From Lama guanicoe (taxonomy: Eukaryota), in assembly GCA_013239625.1 (NCBI GenBank), contig MU053557.1, positions 3,936,123 to 4,000,122 of the forward strand: a DNA stretch of 64,000 bases, given 5' to 3'. A program made the translations under genes and the position numbers. Below the pieces are notes generated by a model that was not told the DNA's origin, made no database searches, and saw only the letters and a list, made by a program, of their open reading frames with translations. Below, in pieces: positions 801 to 10,222 of this stretch (position 1 is the first letter of the stretch; the number at the start of each line of letters is the position of its first letter).

Positions 801-2906
801 AGCTTTTCACTGCAGAAAACGCATCTGTTGGAATAAGTTTGGCCATTGGTTGCACAGACTGGATCCATTTCTCTGGTGCAATAATGTAATTGATCCACAT
901 ACACATCACAGTTTGGCTATTAAAGAGACAACAAAATTTTTCAGATAATGAATTTTTGGAATAAAATGTTCTTTGTTCTTAATACAGTATGCTATGCATC
1001 AAAATGGAATGTATCCCTACATTGAGGTTTAAAAATAAACATCAAGGTACTTACATAATGCTTAGGAAAAAATTATTGATATATTTTTACAACTCCAATG
1101 TTATTTTTTTATAGAAATGGCTGAATGCTCTTTTATAATTTAGCCTCTCTGCCCCTACTTCTCCTCATATCTGGGTCAGATTTTCCCCATTATCTCAGAA
1201 GAAATCATAACCCTGAATTGGTTATAATTCCCCTGTCTCATTAGTTCCACTAGTAGATAAACTGATAGTTTCCGATTATCACCACATATGTATGTATTCA
1301 TATATGTGAGTATGTGTGTTTATAACCATGGACATATATATGGAATTTGTTTAGTGATGGCAGTAATTGCACACATAATTGTGTGTATTCTTATGTGGCC
1401 TGCTCTTTAAATGTCTTTTGATACCACTATCTATTTAGATGTTTATAACTGAAGGTGGTACTCTTCACCTCCATATTTCAGTCTGTGAGTATATGAAAAC
1501 TATTATATTTTATTCGTGTATGAAGAAATTAGCTTTTTTAAACCCTCTTGTTTTGCTAGGATAAGCAAATCTACTTTAAACCCCCTTTAACAAATCTTTT
1601 CGGATGCTTGTCTAAAACAAAGTTTATGCCCAATAATAAACTTTTGAATAATGGGATTTTTTACCTTGTCTGAAATGACAAATGGTTGTATATGGCTGCA
1701 AGATTCCATTTCTAGAACTTAGTATAATAATACTTTTTTTCTTACTTTTTGAAGGATTATTCTGTTGTATATTTGATAAAATTTGCTGTTAAAACTTAAA
1801 AAAAATTTAAAGTTTACCTTTTTCAATTTCCAAATTAATCAGTATAAACTTACCTTTTCACGTGTGTCTGCTGAAGGTGCAAAACCAGTTTCTGCAGCCA
1901 AGACACAAAAGGAAAATTTAAAAGAGGAAGAAGAGGGGAAAACAATCAGTCTTTGGTGGGAAGTACCTGTATCTTTCAGCAGCAAAGTACTATGTAAATT
2001 GCCTAGTGAAAATCCTGTAACTAAGGAAGCAAAGCTTTTTGGCAGTATCAAAACAGTAAGTTCACCATATATAACTCCAAATTTGGAAACAGAATTCGAA
2101 ATTCATCTCACTCTGTGAAAAGTAACTTTATGTATTGTTTACTGATTATGAAAACCTCCTGTGGAGATACTATAGTTTTTCTTTTTCTTTTTATAAATGA
2201 AACATACTAGTCAGAGAAGACAGTGCCTTGCTTAATGCCACTTAATATGTGTTGTATGCAATCACTTACTATGACAAAATTAGTACTCAATTAATTAGTA
2301 CTTAGCTCGAGAATCACGGATCTATCCAATACCTCACAGCTACTTTAGTTTGCAATTCATGGGCCACCTTGTGCTTTCAGATAGATAAGCTGTCAGCAGA
2401 GGAGTCAGTGAATTCTCTCCTTACACAAACCCTTGACTTTAGCAGACTCAGAGCTGGCAAACAACAAATCAGATTGTTGAGGAATACCAGATCTAGAAGA
2501 CAGCATTACTCCTGACTTTACTCTGTACTTAGCAACCAAAGAATCTGAAAAGGGGGAAAAATGAGGTAAATGTCTTTAGTCAAAAATGAACAAACAGCTA
2601 AGTTCTACTGCTCATTGTAACCCCCTTCTCTGTCTCCTCCTTTCTAAGGTGGGAAATGAGAAAAAGCAATCTACTGATGCAATTTTTTAAGAGGTACTTG
2701 GTAACAGGACCCATTCATTTTGCCAGTTTAAGTATTAGAATTTCAGCACATCAAGCTCCTCCATTCCTGGATAATAGCAGCTGTTCCTGCATTTTCTAAA
2801 ATGTGAATTGCTTCATCCAGGAATGGAAAATTGACTCACCAGAATAAAGAGGATATACCAAGGCAATGATGAAAATAGCTTTGATCCACGATGAAAATAG
2901 AGACAT
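801..2906 (-). CDS. Sperm-associated acrosin inhibitor-like Kazal (SPINK) gene, 3'-partial. Coding exons 2906-2840 (67 nt), 1891-1854 (38 nt), 916-801 (116 nt); final exon presumably left of position 1
   Basis: All three exons have canonical AG/GT sites and compatible phases (1, 0, 2). They splice to MSLFSSWIKAIFIIALVYPLYS-ETGFAPSADTREK-PNCDVYVDQLHYCTREMDPVCATNGQTYSNRCVFCSEKL: a signal peptide plus five Kazal cysteines, with P1 = Arg (CTREMDPVC). Closely resembles the porcine sperm-associated acrosin inhibitor as recalled (LCSETGFA...PDCDVY...CTREMDPICGTNGKSYANPCIFCSEKL). Confidence 0.88.
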
Positions 2907-3790
2907 TTTATCAAGTCTGTAGGAGAAACACACAGGAATGTTTATAACACACAGCACAAGGACAAACTGCTGATTTCCAAGTGTAAGTTCCTTACAGATA
3001 AATGAACTGCTCCACTCCCCTAAGTTCCTAATTACAGTGGACTGTTCCCTTTTTCCTTTTTTCCGACCCAGAGGATCAACAAGACATACATGTGAACCGA
3101 AGGCCTCACAGAGACTCGAAGGAAACACCAGGTAAGTCCTCTGCCCATTTAAGGAGCTGTTTACTCTCCCAGCCCCTGGCTCAGCCCACAAGGAACCTGG
3201 CTGCATTTAAAGAAATACACACTTTGGAATTTCAGATTTTCCTCAGAAAATAGTAAGTTAATTCAGGAAGGACTGATCTGGAGCAGTCCTCACAGCAGTG
3301 CGACACACCTGGGCTAATGCCATAGTCCCCAGCTGACCTACCTGAGATGGAGAAGACTGGAGAGTGAGGTCTCCGGCTCCAGTGGCTCTGCCTTCTTTGC
3401 TGCTCTCTCCTCCTCGGCGACCTCCCCCAGCTGAGGCGGCTCCCTTATGGGACTGTCGGTGAGGAGCCCTACGGGGTAAACCAGATGGCCCACAGCAGAT
3501 ACAACCCTGAGGTTTTTCTGTGTTCTGTGTCACAAAGATGTCTCAATAGATCATCTCTCAGCAGGAATTTGAGACAGTTTTATCAGATGAACACAGGTAT
3601 ACGAGGAAGGGAGAAGGTCACAATGTGTTTTGAAACCCTAAGATAGAGATGTGAAAACTTTCCCAGCTGCTGAGTTGAAAAGAAAGGAGAATCAAAACAA
3701 AAAAGAGAAGAGTTTGCAGAACTATAATCAGATGCAAAGTAGTAAACGTGTAGGTGTGTAACACTGGAAGCACATTAGCCTCAACTGGAG
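1770..3790. repeat. Old tandem segmental duplication, copy A
   Basis: Collinear diverged similarity to 4640-6965, e.g. tttttcaatttccaaat / cttttcaacttccaaat, atgggccacctt / atgggccacttt, cagagctg...aaatcagatt...ggaata...gatctaga, gagaatcaa...aagagtttg. Confidence 0.8.
3342..3450 (-). other. Probable non-coding first exon of the acrosin-inhibitor-like gene (5' boundary uncertain)
   Basis: The ATG exon is preceded by an acceptor (tttctcctacag, AG at 2918-2917), implying an upstream UTR exon. A donor CAG|GTAGGT at 3342/3341 is conserved in the duplicate copy (~6540). Confidence 0.45.
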
Positions 3791-3960
3791 ATTTGTTTTT
3801 TATTAAACTTTTCATTTTGAGATAAATGGAGAACTCATAAAGCTGTAAGCACTGCCACAGAGTTCTCATGTTCCTTTGAATCCATTTCCTCCAGTGGGAA
3901 CATCTTGTAAAATTACGGTACAAATTCACCACCAAGAATGTTCAAAAAGCTCCGAGATGA

Positions 3961-4021
3961 TGTGCTGTATGCTAGAAATTGACACAGCATTTTAAACTGA
4001 CTATACTTCAATTAAAAAAGA
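3961..4021 (+). mobile_element. Very short L1 3'-terminal insertion
   Basis: tgtgctgta...gaaattgacac...tgactatacttcaattaaaaaa tail flanked by a 17-bp TSD aaaaagctcc(g/c)agatga (3944-3960, 4022-4038). Confidence 0.8.
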
Positions 4022-4131
4022 AAAAAGCTCCCAGATGAGTGTCAGGTCAGGGCAGCCAGCTTTGGGAACTTAAGAACTTAAGATGAGAAAGAATGCTTGT
4101 TAGTTTCAGGTGCACAGCAAAGTGACTCAGG

Positions 4132-4636
4132 TACACATACATACATACATACACACATACATACATACATACATAATGGGTGGTAGGATGGGTAGGTAGA
4201 TGGATGGAAGGGTTGATAGGCAGGATAAAAGGGAGAGAGAGAGGAAAGGTAGGAAGAAAGAAAGAAGGAGAGAAGAAAAAAGAAATGTTGATGGGTAGGT
4301 AGGTTTGTGGGTTCATAGGTGGATGGATCGATGGGTGGGTGGCTGGTTAGGTAGGTTCGTGGGTTGGTGGATGGATGAAGGGTTGATAGGAAGGAAGGAA
4401 GGGAGAGATACAAAGAAAGGTGGGTGAGTGAATGCATGGATAGGTACGTAGGTAAAGGTGCATGGCTAGACAATTGGATAGGTAGGAAGAGAGAGGGAGG
4501 GAGAGGGGGAGAGAAAGAAAGAAAGGAGAAAGAAAGAAAGAAAAATGCGTAGGTAGGTGCATTCGTTGGTAGATGGATGGATCGGTTGATAGGAAGGAAG
4601 GAAGGGGGAGAGAGGGAGGGAGGGAGAGAAAGAAAA
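4132..4636. repeat. Composite microsatellite: (TACA)n followed by purine-rich (GGAT/GGTA/GGAA/GAAA)n
   Basis: Visible directly; the motif ggatgg...ggttgatagg recurs about three times (~4200, 4370, 4575). Confidence 0.9.
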
Positions 4637-4719
4637 CAAGTAATTTTGCTATGATTTTTAAAAATGAAAATTGTTAAAATTTTACTTTTCAACTTCCAAA
4701 TGAACCCGTAGTAACTTAC

Positions 4720-6094
4720 CCAATGCGTGAAACTTGATGTTTTTGTAAAAGCAGTTTCTGTAACTAAAGAACAGTAAAAACATAAGAAGCCCGTACATAT
4801 GTGGGTAGCATAAATCTATGTCAGTGACCTATTCAAGGAACTACAACTAATGAGGGAAGAATTTTGTGGTAGTAACAAAAATACAAATTCTCAAATATAT
4901 CCAAATCTTAGGAAAAAAAATCCCCAAATTAACTCTGTGAAAAATAGTATATATTATTTTTTTAATAACTCCTAATACCCTCCTTGAAAATACCAATTTA
5001 TTAAGCTTTGTAAAAGATATTTAGTTGTGATGAAAGTAGATGTCCTGGGTGACATTACTTAATTATGAAGCAATTCATACTTGATACAAATAAAATTTAC
5101 ATTAAGAATGGAGAAATATGAGGGTTGTTTTCAATACCTAACGGTCACTTTTTTCCTAACTGTATGGGCCACTTTGAACTTTATGATAACTGATCAACTG
5201 AGGTATGAAGGCCTTACAGAAAGGCCTTAATTTCAGGGGCTCAGAGCTGTTTATTGAAAAATCAGATTTTCAAGGAATATCCGATCTAGAGTAGATCATT
5301 CTTTCCCTACACTTGAATTTAACTACAATAGAATCTGGGCCCCAAAAGGAAAAAGAATTTAATTAAGCAAAGAGCAAAGGTCTATCGCCTATTCTAACCC
5401 ACCACATTGTTTTTGAGAAGGAAAAGCCGGGCTGGGCTAACAAGCTAACTCGTAAATTTAAATTAATAAATGTCGGTTTACTGATCTCAGTTCTGCTGGG
5501 CTAACTCGTAAATCTGAAGTTTAGTAAGTGTCGGTTTACTGGGCTAACAAGCTAACTTGTAAATCCAAGCTCAGCAAGTGTCAGTAACATGATCTGTTTC
5601 TACTAGATAAGTTCTAGTGTACTGATTCCCTGCTTTTGCTGTTTGTGCCTTATTGGCTAATAGCCCCATGCTTGTAATTAACCCTGTAAAACCCCACGCA
5701 CACGTCTTGGAGGTGCTCAGAGCTTCGGAGCAGAAGCCCCTCTGAACCCACCAGTGTAATAAATCTGAGTACTCCAACCCTCCAAGTAGTGCTTGTTTCT
5801 TGGCTGGCCTGTCGTTTCCATAACATTTCACCTTCTCTAATATGGGAGATGAGAAAAAGCAATTTAGTGATAAAGTATTTAAAAGGAATTTATAACAAGC
5901 CCTGTGTCATTTTACCAATGTCAGTATTACAAACTTAATAAAACCACCACTGATTTCTCAGGTACAGCAAACAGCTTCCTGTGTTTCTAGGATATATGAA
6001 GTTGTTCTACCCAGGACTGGAAAATTTACTCACCAGAATAAAAAGTAAAGGTCAAGATGATGAAGATCGCTTTGATCCATGGTAAGAGAGGCAT
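4720..6094 (-). other. Duplicated 5' module of the acrosin-inhibitor-like gene: signal-peptide exon 6094-6034 (61 nt) and linker exon 4757-4720 (38 nt); no Kazal exon of its own (partial paralogue, pseudogene, or alternative 5' exons)
   Basis: Splices to MPLLPWIKAIFIILTFTFYS-ETAFTKTSSFTHW. Frame is open, donors are intact (GTGAGT, GTAAGT) and the linker-exon acceptor is intact. The acceptor before the ATG exon reads CG instead of AG (6106-6105). Confidence 0.75.
5414..5825 (+). mobile_element. ERV1-class solo LTR, copy 1 of inverted pair
   Basis: TG...CA termini, internal repeats of ctgggctaac(aagctaac)tcgtaaat, AATAAA at 5758-5763; near-identical reverse complement of 7643-8052. Confidence 0.85.
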
Positions 6095-7043
6095 TTTTTC
6101 GAGTCGGTCAAAGAAACCCTTCAGAATGTTTGTAACAATGGCAAAGAGACACATGCCCATTTCAAGGGACAGGCAAATAAAACCCACAGCCTCAGAAAGT
6201 GTCTTATTTGCAGAGGAATTACTCCAACCCCTAGACCCCAAGTTAAGATGGACTGTCCCCTCTGCTGCTCCCCCAGCCCTATAATTCACAAGAAGTATCT
6301 TGTCATCAGAAGACCGCCCTAAAGTGTAAGAGAAAACTCATGAGAAGTGCTCTGTGAACATGAGAAGAAGCTGATTACTCTCCTAAACCTTTGAGTCAAC
6401 CTACGAGGAACCTGGCTGTATTCAGAGTAAACATGCACATCAGAATCTCCACGTTTTCTTATGAAAAACAGGAAAGGCTGTTTCTGGAAGGACGAATCTA
6501 CCCCCAGGGCTCGCTCCCTACGTGCCTCACTTGACCTACCTGACATAGAGGTTAACAGGCAGTGAAGCAACAGTGGCTGTCTTACCTTTCCTTCCCGGTC
6601 ATCCCCCTCTGTCCAGGTAAGTCATTCTTGCTGATTTACAAGGGAGGTGATACAGAGAGCTCAGGGCAGCCAAGAGGCAGAGATGCTCCGTGTCCTCCCT
6701 GCGGGATACACAAAGGTCAGGAGAGATGCGTCACAGGTACTTCACAATACGTCTTCCCTCAGCAGGAGGCCTGGGACAGTTTGATCTGATGAACCCAGAA
6801 GTATGAGGAGCAAAGAAGAAAATACGTGCAGTTACAGATTTTAAGATAGAGAAGATATGTAAAAACTTTCCAAGCATGAAAGTTGGAAAGGAACAAGAGA
6901 ATCAAGCAAGAAAAAGAAGAGTTTGGAAATGTTAATTCAACAAGGGCCTAAACCCTTGGAACTTTAAAAAAATATATCACTGTTTTCTAAAACATCTCCT
7001 ATACAAACTACCTATAAAGGAAAGGACGAAACTTGGTTCGAAG

Positions 7044-7642: not shown

Positions 7643-8052
7643 TGTTACGGAAATGACAGGCCAGCCAAGAAACAAGCACCACTCGGAGGGTTGGAGTACT
7701 CAGATGTATTACGCCGGCGGGCTCAGAGGGGCTTCTGCTCTGAAGCTCTGAGCACCTCCAAGACGTGCACATGAGGTTTTATAGGGTTAATTACAAGTAT
7801 GGGGCTATTAGCCAATAAGGTTCAAACAACAAAAAGCAAGGAATCAGTACACTGGAGCTTATCAATTTGGAACAGATCACGTTACTGACACTTGTTGAGC
7901 TTGGATTTACGAGTTAGCTTGTTAGCCCAGTAAACTGACACTAAACTTTAGATTTACAAGTTAGCCCAGCAGAACTTATATCAGTAAACCGACACTTATC
8001 ACACTTAGATTTGTGACTTAGCTTGTTAGCCCAGCTGGGCTTTTCCTTCACA
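7643..8052 (-). mobile_element. ERV1-class solo LTR, copy 2 of inverted pair
   Basis: TG...CA termini, perfect 4-bp TSD ATTC (7639-7642, 8053-8056); minus strand carries ATTGG and CCTATAAAA (7785-7777). Confidence 0.88.
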
Positions 8053-10222
8053 ATTCTACATTTCTTTAGTAAAACACATTTTAAATGAGCATTTGGCCTT
8101 CCAGTTAAACCTAATTCTCATTGACCCAGAAGTGGAGAGGAATGGACCACTATCTACCATCTGCCCTAAAGTGGACGACTTAAGTTGTGGATGGCAGGAT
8201 CTCCTCCAGCCCAGATCGATCCATCTACCTTGGAACCATTATGGGAAAATAAATAAAATTATAAATGAAGGTGCTATACTCTTCTATGTCTGTTATATTA
8301 AGTTAGCCCGTATCCCAACAAATCCAGTGAACTTCAACCAAACTTGCCTAGGAACTGCATTTCTTTGAATGTTAATCACATCTATTAAGATGGTCTCAGT
8401 CTAATGATGGAGATGCTAATGACTGGGAATGCCTGAGGCCCTGAAAACTTGAGGCAGCCCCATTTCCAGTGAGTCAATACAGGGCTGGACTGGCCTTTGT
8501 AGTTCTTATGATTACAGGACACAATTCAGGAATCCAAAGTGGATTGTACTGTCTGTTTCTCCAGTTTACACTCCAGACTTGAGACCTGGCCTCGTGCAAT
8601 TTTATGTGCTCTTCAAATTAATCCGTATTTTGGCAGGGGGTGGGCAGGGAGATGTGTGAGGAGATCTGATTTAGCCAGGCGTCATTTTCCAAGAGGGATC
8701 AGGAAATCTTAATGTTAGTGCCTTTTTCTACCTGGCAAAACTAAAATTATGCTGGTACACAAAGGATCACTTAAGCTCTTGAAAACAAGGGAAAAGGAGC
8801 CCCAAGGAAGCAACAGGTAATTAGCAGCCAAAGGCCTCTGAATCTTAGCAGATAAAACTCCCTTTAGTTAGAGGGTGCAGGCATTTTTCTTTCCTCATAT
8901 GTTTAATTTATAAACTGCTTCTAAAGACACCGAAAAGGTTGGCACTAGTACTAAGCATATTTAAAGCCCTTCTAACTTATCTGTCCCTTCTCTTCACTTT
9001 TTTTCTTGTGATCCATATTCATTTCAACCTCCATCTCCTACCCCAGAAACCAGAAGGTTCCAACGTAACTTTGTGTCCATCATCAGCTGAACATGGTTCA
9101 TGGATATTCATGAATAAGTTGATTTCAGTTATACAAAATAATGTTGCATTTCTTCACATTCAAGTTTTACCATAAATAATAACCCCGTAATATAAGCAAT
9201 GAGGAGCCAATGGAAGCTCTGAGTAGGGCAACAGGATCAGATTTGTGTTTTAGAAATAGCATTCTTGAAATTCCTGTATATCAAGAGAATGGATAAATTT
9301 CCCTGCAAGTCAGAAAGACGGTATATCACATTAATGTATGAAAAGATTAATAAAAGACATTACTTTTACCAAATTTATGTGGCTCTAATCAAAATTCCAG
9401 TAGGGTTATGTCTTAGTGGACTAGACAGTGTCTCTATAGTACATCTGAGAAGACACTCTCAAAAATATGCAAGAACATAGTAAAAAAACAAAAACAAAAC
9501 CCAACAGCAACAACAAAACAATGGATGGATTTCTTCCTTTCATACATATTACTGAATACCTATCAAGTGATTAAAAAAAAACTTGCACTGCAGAACTGGG
9601 TAGATAGGGTCTTTTCCTTCATAGAACATGCAGTCTAATTACCTAGGAGGCATTTTTTGGAGACTGAGTGCTGACTGTGGAAAGAGGGAGACAGAAAAAT
9701 CAAAGACACTTCCAAGAAAGGCACAGGGCATCATACAAGATGATGATGGTACTGGGCTTAGAAGTTTATGGAAAGTAAACTAAAGGGAACATTCATTCTC
9801 TAAGATGAAAGAAAACAGAGAAAGTAAGTGAACGTAGGTTTAGGATTAAATGTACCTGTGTTTTAATCCTATCTCTGCCCATTTGTAGCTTTGTTAGTAG
9901 CTAGTTAGCTTCCACAAATGAATTTACTCCCCTAAGCCTCAGTTTCTTTTTCCCTTGTGCAAGTTTCAAAGTAGTTTAAACCTCATGGAATTATTGTGAG
10001 GAATAAATATGATGAGGAATGTAAACCACATAGTCAGGTACTGGCAATAAGGAAGGAATGGATGGATGTGTAGCTCCCTAGGTAAACTGAAACGGAGAGA
10101 AAGGTAAAAATAGACATAAAGGTATATGGTAAAATTTCCAGAATTACAAGGCAAAGGGAAAAAAAAGTGGAGCTAGTTCATCCTGAGGCTTCCCTACTCA
10201 GTAAAGAAGAGGTGAAGTTTCC

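Follow-up and report, generated by a model that had tools for sequence, protein, structure and literature searches.

The 64,000-nucleotide stretch of Lama guanicoe DNA that was analysed, called the window here (contig MU053557.1, positions 3,936,123 to 4,000,122), carries on its minus strand a Kazal inhibitor gene, designated gene A, and directly upstream a related unit, copy B (Table 1). The last exon of gene A begins at window -82, just beyond the window edge. The leader exons of both gene A and copy B had been missed by the initial annotation.

Table 1. Features of gene A, copy B and the interval between them (window positions)
Feature	Start	End	Strand	Description
Gene A Kazal exon	801	916	-	116 nt; phase 0 at start; matches the PF00050 profile
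Gene A linker exon	1854	1891	-	38 nt; ends in phase 0
Gene A signal-peptide exon	2840	2916	-	AG acceptor intact; ATG at 2906
Gene A leader exon	3342	3468	-	127 nt; camelid models splice the B linker donor (4720) to this exon
Simple-repeat tract	4135	4634		Sits where the B Kazal exon, last exon and 3' UTR would be expected; B intron 2 homology ends at its edge
Start of B intron 2, surviving	4640	4719	-	Aligns to intron 2 of units A, C and G
Copy B linker exon	4720	4763	-	Ancestral acceptor gives 4757-4720: 38 nt, AG/GT, ends in phase 0
LTR-like insertion in B intron 1	5413	5825	+	88% identical to an opposite-orientation copy at 7643-8053; LTR label assigned visually rather than from a repeat library
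Copy B signal-peptide exon	6034	6104	-	ATG at 6094; 61 coding nt (6094-6034), open; GT donor after 6034; skipped in camelid RefSeq models
Dead acceptor of B signal exon	6105	6106	-	CG for AG; retrocopy L031 joins the upstream exon exactly at this boundary
Copy B leader exon, 3' part	6586	6625	-	Donor after 6586; ATG at 6602 in frame with the gene A ATG in models; short overlapping out-of-frame uORF from 6625

The Kazal exon of gene A by itself scored 48.5 bits against PF00050 (cut-off 21) and therefore belongs to the Kazal family; P0224 scored 59.9 bits against the same cut-off. Its arginine is, in the usual Kazal numbering, presumably the P1 residue. The exon was 67% identical to pig sperm-associated acrosin inhibitor, and the order of a B unit followed by an A unit was common to the pig models and this locus, so that both sequence and position match gene A to the pig gene (P26461, NP_999042), which also lies behind a B unit. 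The name sperm-associated acrosin inhibitor was taken from the database records of the camelid proteins; acrosin inhibition and a location on sperm are predicted functions.

The similarity between gene A and copy B, 70% over 318 nt (E 4e-25), was far above chance and extended to the promoter-side blocks 6365-6499 and 6742-6925. The initial annotation had described two open copy B exons with good donors and a linker ending in phase 0, all of which held on the minus strand at the positions it gave. The phase match of this linker to the gene A Kazal exon is trivial, since the units share one ancestor and the 38-nt linker of gene A likewise ends in phase 0. The B linker also had a second acceptor 6 nt upstream, used by the camelid models, that yields a 44-nt exon (4763-4720) in a different reading frame. 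The annotation was also right about the degenerate acceptor of the signal exon and the weaker AG near 6120: 6106-6105 reads CG, whereas all four other units printed (A, C, D and G) have AG, and the nearest AG upstream is 6120-6119.

The reported absence of a Kazal exon between 4720 and gene A was borne out, as neither the pig peptide nor the retrocopy described below detected a remnant. The pig B-type Kazal peptide scored 35 against 2900-4720, a value matched by 28 of 100 shuffled sequences. On the minus strand of 3470-4719, the 3' half of the retrocopy did no better than shuffled sequence (the score was reached by 39 and 97 of 200 shuffles), although in a wrong-strand control the retrocopy Kazal exon scored 23 on the plus strand, which only 7 of 200 reached. 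When the retrocopy 3' half was searched against the genome, a search that gives lower bounds, all six matches were either paralogues at 68-75% or one 50-nt piece of the gene A Kazal exon, leaving no parent. Consequently, neither the window nor the genome search placed a PF00050 member of copy B's own behind its linker. Only 785 nt separated the B linker donor from the upstream homology of gene A, as compared with the 1980 nt that lie between donor and stop codon in gene A, and the simple-repeat tract is the probable deletion site.

The counterparts of copy B in other mammals have the part that is absent here. The B linker shared 9 of 13 residues with that of pig and 10 of 13 with those of hippopotamus, dolphin and pilot whale, versus 2-3 of 13 for the gene A linker in the same comparison, and in all four species the B-type linker leads into a different Kazal exon, its own. 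Altogether, 26 stored proteins, from only three lineages, had the B linker joined to its own Kazal exon. On this evidence copy B is taken to be orthologous to the upstream unit of pig, hippopotamus and whales, and it is probably orthologous to the first unit of rat Spink10. The hippopotamus 'SPINK6-like' protein (P0214) and the toothed-whale 'SPINK10-like' proteins are direct orthologues, with the same signal and linker and their own Kazal and last exons. P0214, unlike copy B, looks complete, while the dolphin and pilot whale proteins have lost cysteines, which indicates that decay of the B unit is recurrent. The pig models XP_020936183-200 likewise run on from unit B to unit A, but pig keeps the B Kazal exon, in frame, and has two domains, whereas in camelids that exon is gone and the B frame is broken. 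Rat Spink10 (D3ZRP0, XP_002728606) similarly has two signal-linker-Kazal units in one frame, and its first Kazal domain grouped with the B-type domains with rough support; both Kazal domains are present in rat, only the second in camelids. A two-unit read-through of the Spink10 type was not found at this locus, where one Kazal domain is left and the B frame, continued into the nearer gene A exons, stops after 40 or 34 residues. Where it is listed in a review (PMC13639018), SPINK10 is described as computationally annotated, without functional data, and another article gives Spink10 as a marker of mouse caudal principal cells that was not detected in pig (PMC11011153).

The history of copy B is recorded elsewhere in the guanaco genome. 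The locus L031 on contig C6107 is a processed retrocopy: it is intronless, retains the trace of a poly(A) tail and bears a target-site duplication, the hallmarks of L1-made processed pseudogenes as set out in PMC5470649. It differs from the usual case in that the 3' half of its parent is gone, so L031 is the sole record of those exons found in the assembly. It contains, in order, distant exon 1, distant exon 2, the B signal exon, the B linker, a Kazal exon, the last exon and the 3' UTR. The signal and linker parts differed from the B exons by 10% and 14% and from the A exons by 27% and 30%, and its Kazal exon differed by 25% from that of gene A. Its Kazal peptide clustered not with gene A but with the pig, hippopotamus, whale and rat unit-1 domains (support 90/90, 36 columns), a rough and unstarred grouping in a tree of weak support that had no starred branch and 12 of 17 forks open. 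L031 enters the B signal exon precisely at the acceptor that now reads CG and thus shows that the B transcript formerly began in a distant leader lying 75-81 kb upstream; one distant exon is at C1176:4011265. The retrocopy retains the mRNA of the lost gene and so dates the changes relative to one another: the retrocopy arose before the deletion and before the acceptor was lost. The initial annotation had named a Kazal exon of copy B's own, in other assemblies or long genomic reads, as one of the observations that would count against its model, and in substance such an exon was found in the pig, hippopotamus and whale proteins and in this retrocopy. Because copy B once had its own Kazal and last exons, the gap represents a deletion. 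With intact orthologues, absent essential exons and a further disabling change, copy B shows these features of a partial-deletion pseudogene in a tandem cluster. L038 contains a 3' UTR fragment only. Genome-wide DNA searches with the B exons revealed no additional retrocopy: one returned four matches, all already known, and a second, insensitive enough to miss the known retrocopy, returned one, also known.

It is very likely that an old tandem paralogue of the sperm-associated acrosin inhibitor gene survives in copy B as its 5' half, that the 3' half was deleted and that the remnant is now a leader for gene A. The evidence above shows that the unit once ended in a Kazal exon, a last exon and a 3' UTR of its own and was fed by a distant leader. 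A deletion in a camelid ancestor, at least some 2 kb long and located at the simple-repeat tract, would have removed the 3' half including the poly(A) site, and transcripts from the B promoter or the distant leader would now continue into gene A. Such read-through may skip the acceptor-less signal exon, take the linker via the nearby acceptor and join the gene A leader exon, the surviving B exons thereby serving as a 5' leader. The working product is most likely the ordinary 88-residue secreted Kazal inhibitor of gene A, started at its own ATG.

The predicted camelid gene models agree with this route. They start in the B promoter exon, skip the signal exon, pass through the linker and splice 4720 to 3468 in a shifted frame. 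The path 6602..6586, 4763-4720, 3468-3342 and gene A reproduced the 154-residue alpaca model XP_072811251 exactly, and nine of the ten camelid cluster members contained the B linker in the shifted frame, the tenth being gene A alone. The B 5' region is therefore probably an alternative leader of gene A. The suggestion of an alternative promoter made by the initial annotation thus survives insofar as the models begin in the B promoter exon and enter gene A; it fails in that the signal exon is skipped and the linker joins 3468 rather than 916.

Whether copy B, having lost its Kazal exon, was put to new use in camelids as a functional front end for gene A, providing either a second secreted form through the 4720>916 junction or a membrane-tethered 154-residue form, is a separate question, and we give this only an outside chance. 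Were that to be borne out, the locus would offer an elegant example of exons reused once their gene had been lost. In the tethered form, the 66-residue extension is partly the B linker in a new frame and the gene A signal peptide becomes an internal anchor; the form can be likened, in its internal signal sequence, to the two-unit architecture of Spink10.

The better of the two variants, in which translation from ATG 6602 places 66 extra residues before the gene A signal peptide and converts it to an internal membrane anchor, is itself unlikely. Several observations are consistent with it, 1) the frame is open in the alpaca, wild camel and Bactrian models, 2) there is a purine at -3 of the ATG, 3) the sole hydrophobic 19-residue window begins at residue 68, with a mean of 1.72, and 4) unit B is joined in frame to unit A in the pig and rat models too. 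However, camel and alpaca differed at 4 of 66 positions in the extension and at none of 66 in the linker, Kazal domain and tail, and two of the three frames of the gene A leader exon are free of stops in any case. Moreover, the upstream ATG at 6625 is out of frame and overlaps the start, and the 5' exon that supplies the start varies among the models, as expected of a predictor that chooses the longest frame. The camelid RefSeq 'isoforms' of 154-242 residues are thus to be viewed with caution, being probably read-through leaders.

The other variant was the central proposal of the initial annotation: that the B signal and linker exons were kept to be spliced onto the gene A Kazal exon, so that the inhibitor would be unchanged but its mature N-terminus different. 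The path from B signal and linker to the Kazal and last exons of gene A is open and encodes 86 residues, and the signal peptide was identical in wild camel (EPY79632) and the window. In addition, in models from bear and seal a single signal-plus-linker is attached to two different Kazal exons (P0174 vs P0196, P0191 vs P0204), so that splicing of a linker to another Kazal exon has at least been modelled in the cluster. However, the signal exon has no acceptor, and the transcript must skip three gene A exons, the nearer of which stop the B frame. The 4720>916 junction was present in none of the 280 stored proteins, approximately 150 of which are mostly unrelated multi-Kazal proteins, compared with the 26 in which that linker runs into a Kazal exon of its own. 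Neither of the two retrocopies examined had the junction. A variable N-terminus on a constant Kazal exon is thus unsupported by the models, which follow the leader route above, and we regard it as very improbable, although a minor 4720>916 form may exist.

Evidence of constraint on the B exons was weak. Over 30 codons compared with L031, there were seven amino-acid-changing differences, six on the retrocopy and one on copy B (one-sided P=0.06; P=0.035 when the lost ATG of the retrocopy was counted), a weak sign, in favour of the splicing proposal and against simple decay, that selection acted on the B exons during much of the period after the retrocopy formed. Between camel and alpaca, one change was seen where 2.4 were expected (P=0.32, 33 codons only), which is not significant. 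The argument that open exons imply function used the wrong clock, since the relevant time starts at the loss of the Kazal exon and not at the A-B duplication; the simulated probability of neutral survival since that loss was 0.17-0.66, under our assumptions of a transition ratio of 3, one indel for every ten substitutions and a frameshift in three of every four indels.

Clustered protocadherins and UGT1A are loci with variable first exons and constant 3' exons, and at first sight the guanaco locus resembles them in that tandem 5' modules precede a common set of 3' exons. Here, however, every 5' module was once a whole gene; in pig, hippopotamus, whales and the retrocopy, the B unit has a Kazal exon of its own. 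The two retrocopies carry a common distant leader spliced to alternative whole inhibitor units, the reverse layout. The locus thus reflects mostly ordinary gene decay and not a mix-and-match splicing system, and the main value of the analysis is to correct an attractive but wrong reading.

That copy B is in truth an intact gene, its 3' half lost during assembly by collapse or omission over the simple-repeat tract, is hardly credible, because, although a low-complexity tract coincides with the gap and the assembly is in 55231 contigs, there is no N within 244 kb around the window, the lower-bound search found the missing exons on no other contig, none of the ten camelid cluster members, some on contigs of 119-164 Mb, has a B Kazal exon while the pig models do, and the dead acceptor is an independent sign of decay. 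To judge from those models, the exon would be absent in Camelus.

Protein searches with short regions were insensitive, returning one match and none, and the family was reached only by an alignment search (75 of 1045 candidates); the Atlas search gave generic Kazal clusters only, all below 0.9. Querying sequencing runs with the last exon and 3' UTR of gene A returned no RNA run, a result that weighs neither way. No paper on the evolution of the cluster was found in the open-access literature searched. A plus-strand exon at window +89.5 kb, beyond a CpG-rich stretch at +80-82 kb, may be the start of FBXO38; a Pfam search of it gave no match and Atlas only a 0.76 F-box lead. Downstream of gene A are more Kazal-less stubs, C and D, and the promoter-only E; in camelids, the Kazal half seems to be gone from three adjacent units (B, C and D) of this male-tract inhibitor cluster.

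The window (G000:C1176:3936123-4000122 of the 2.05-Gb genome) lies within a cluster of Kazal exons, and its exons were closer to alpaca than to camel protein models, which points to a South American camelid. Gene A has the full exon set of a Kazal gene, and its Kazal exon was 67% identical to that of the pig sperm-associated acrosin inhibitor. Sequence comparison confirmed that a diverged duplicate, copy B, lies upstream of A with the signal (6094-6034) and linker (4757-4720) exons described in the initial annotation. Both exons are open and, when joined to the Kazal and last exons of A, encode 86 residues. No Kazal exon or remnant was found between 4720 and A, where the search score was reached by 28 of 100 shuffles, and the acceptor preceding the B signal exon is indeed CG, the equivalent being AG in A and in the paralogous units C, D and G. 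The phase 0 of the B linker does fit the A Kazal exon as claimed, but the agreement is uninformative because the linker of A itself matches it in length and phase. The B promoter and signal exon lie between two LTR-like copies (5413-5825 and 7643-8053) of 88% identity and opposite orientation; the upstream one, about 1 kb before the B leader exon in B's sense, might act as a promoter.

Exons of gene A and copies of the unit located around it (window positions; negative values lie to the left of the window)
Feature	Position	Strand	Basis
Gene A leader exon	3468-3342	minus	
Gene A signal exon	2916-2840	minus	
Gene A linker exon	1891-1854	minus	
Gene A Kazal exon	916-801	minus	PF00050 passed
Gene A last exon	start 82 nt past left end	minus	
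Signal-exon copy, B	6094	minus	nucleotide search
Signal-exon copy, A	2906	minus	nucleotide search
Signal-exon copy, C	-2557		nucleotide search
Signal-exon copy, D	-8892		nucleotide search
Signal-exon copy, F	about -27730		nucleotide search
Signal-exon copy, G	about -39116	opposite	nucleotide search
Promoter-only block, E	near -12400		nucleotide search

A query taken from far upstream in a camelid model hit two exons, C1176:4011267-4011371 and C1176:4016595-4016705, as well as a single uninterrupted match on contig C6107 (locus L031). At L031 a poly(A) remnant and a target-site duplication identify a processed retrocopy, both features being among the hallmarks of such copies given in PMC5470649. 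It carries, in order, distant exons 1 and 2, the B signal and linker exons, a Kazal exon, a last exon and the 3' UTR. The divergence from the four parent exons was 7.6%, 9.0%, 10.3% and 13.5%, as compared with differences from A of 27% (signal), 30% (linker) and 25% (Kazal). The Kazal peptide grouped with the unit-1 domains of pig, hippo, whale and rat (rough support 90/90). L031 joins the B signal exon at 6104, right behind the present CG dinucleotide, which means that this acceptor was once functional. No parent of its 3' half was found among six genome matches or in 3470-4719. The alignment of B intron 2 with its paralogues ends near 4640, at the start of a simple-repeat tract, and 785 nt are left at B versus the 1980 nt needed in A.

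A second retrocopy, L037 (C4963, about 3163480-3164100), is 5'-truncated and derives from an A-type transcript starting in the distant leader: it has distant exon 2 followed by signal, linker, Kazal and last exons of the A type; the deer model P0168 apparently has the same join. In the two retrocopies, different whole units are spliced behind a common distant leader, which inverts the layout first proposed. The distant leader exons (L026, window-equivalent +75143 to +82000) begin in CpG-rich sequence (observed/expected about 0.7), and the transcript runs across three or more Kazal exons of the plus strand (window 15950, 28600 and 48350). It resembles a divergent transcript of a putative FBXO38 promoter. 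Retrocopies must be formed in germ-line or early embryonic cells. Their germ-line origin is noted in PMC5470649, and their formation here is compatible with, but no proof of, a male reproductive transcript.

The B linker matched those of pig (9/13 residues), hippo, dolphin and pilot whale (10/13 each), which shared only 2-3 of 13 residues with the A linker. In all four species the B-type linker is followed by a Kazal exon differing from A's; the hippo protein is complete and passed PF00050. The view that the B modules lacked 3' exons of their own was contradicted by these proteins and by L031: copy B was formerly a complete gene, its 3' half is absent here and its acceptor is dead. In pig read-through models the B Kazal exon continues in frame into the A leader or signal exon, a two-unit layout also seen in rat Spink10. 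A weak match to an upstream exon of the pig models (window 8450-8560; 43%, E 0.095) is possibly a shared repeat serving as an exon in pig.

Predicted camelid models (alpaca, wild camel, Bactrian, dromedary) send the B linker into the A leader. Nine of the ten proteins in this cluster contain the linker exon in a shifted frame followed by the A leader exon, and the remaining one is A's ordinary 88-residue protein. The path runs from the B leader exon (ATG 6602, donor 6586) through the linker, via an acceptor at 4763, to 3468 onward and reproduces alpaca XP_072811251 exactly; other models start from the distant exon. The suggestion that B is an alternative front end of A was supported only in part, as regards use of an alternative leader in these predictions; the signal exon is skipped in all of them and the linker joins 3468. 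EPY79632, an old wild-camel prediction, starts with the B signal exon, yet joined to the A leader exon; it also has the G signal exon in place of A's. In B's own frame, translation across a join to the leader exon or the signal exon of A terminates after 40 or 34 residues. Two camel models leave the A last exon early for a cryptic exon within C intron 1 (L013, window -3009 to -3116), another sign of loose read-through between units.

It is highly probable that B, once whole, suffered a deletion at the simple-repeat tract in a common camelid ancestor, which would have removed its poly(A) site and allowed read-through into A, with translation chiefly from A's ATG. A working extended form of A would be compatible with the same deletion history but is unlikely, as camel and alpaca differ at four positions of the 66-residue extension and at none of the last 66 residues; the extension behaves as an untranslated or unconstrained leader might.

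A working 4720>916 form, with the B linker joined directly to the A Kazal exon, is very unlikely. Among 280 proteins compared, about 150 of them mostly unrelated multi-Kazal proteins, 26 (pig, hippo and toothed whales; many redundant isoforms) had the B linker followed by its own Kazal exon, and in no case did an A-type Kazal start follow it. The relevant clock for the open exons is the time since Kazal loss, which postdates the retrocopy. In a simple simulation of neutral change, the start codon, reading frame and three splice sites survived with probability 0.66, 0.42 and 0.17 at divergences of 2%, 4.2% and 8.4%, falling to 0.00 at 28%, the A-B distance used originally as the yardstick. Six of seven amino-acid-changing differences between B and L031 fell on the retrocopy side (P=0.06; P=0.035 with its ATG counted), which counts against the reading of B as a decaying remnant. 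The pattern is expected if B long stayed a whole gene after retrocopy formation, but continuing constraint would look alike. Camel and alpaca B exons had one change where 2.4 were expected (P=0.32). Carnivore models P0174, P0196, P0191, P0204 and P0042 have one signal-plus-linker with two alternative Kazal exons, the mirror image of the B finding and candidates for mutually exclusive Kazal exons. Bear and seal models pair a single linker with two Kazal exons, so that splicing between units has at least been modelled within the cluster. An assembly artefact, the remaining explanation, is most improbable.

The cluster is of the birth-and-death type, and copy B is a half-deleted paralogue within it whose fossil record is unusually clear. 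This kind of event is already known and B is a further case; no publication on the remnant or its cluster was found in the open literature searched. The nucleotide searches covered 244 kb around the window. Kazal exons were present in units F and G and were not found for C or D, where 17 and 74 of 100 shuffles, respectively, equalled the score; the C signal-exon donor is GC. Because C and D are situated on the downstream side of A, the stubs have no special placement ahead of the A Kazal exon. The similarity among units, about 70-80%, marks the duplications as old. C, D and E (L013, L014; window -2500 to -12600) are further 5' stubs. The D signal peptide matches the complete sheep protein P0207 at 17 of 22 residues and the C linker, judged by eye, resembles that of the protein P0155; several Kazal halves seem to have been lost in camelids. 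A broken second Kazal-like exon (L016, window -35965 to -35810) lies between the G Kazal and last exons. About 600 nt of the A promoter and leader exon (2900-3500) are 99-100% identical to inverted unit G, 42 kb away (L016, window -39700 to -39100, opposite strand), within flanks that are only 57-82% alike, which points either to recent gene conversion or to an effect of the assembly.
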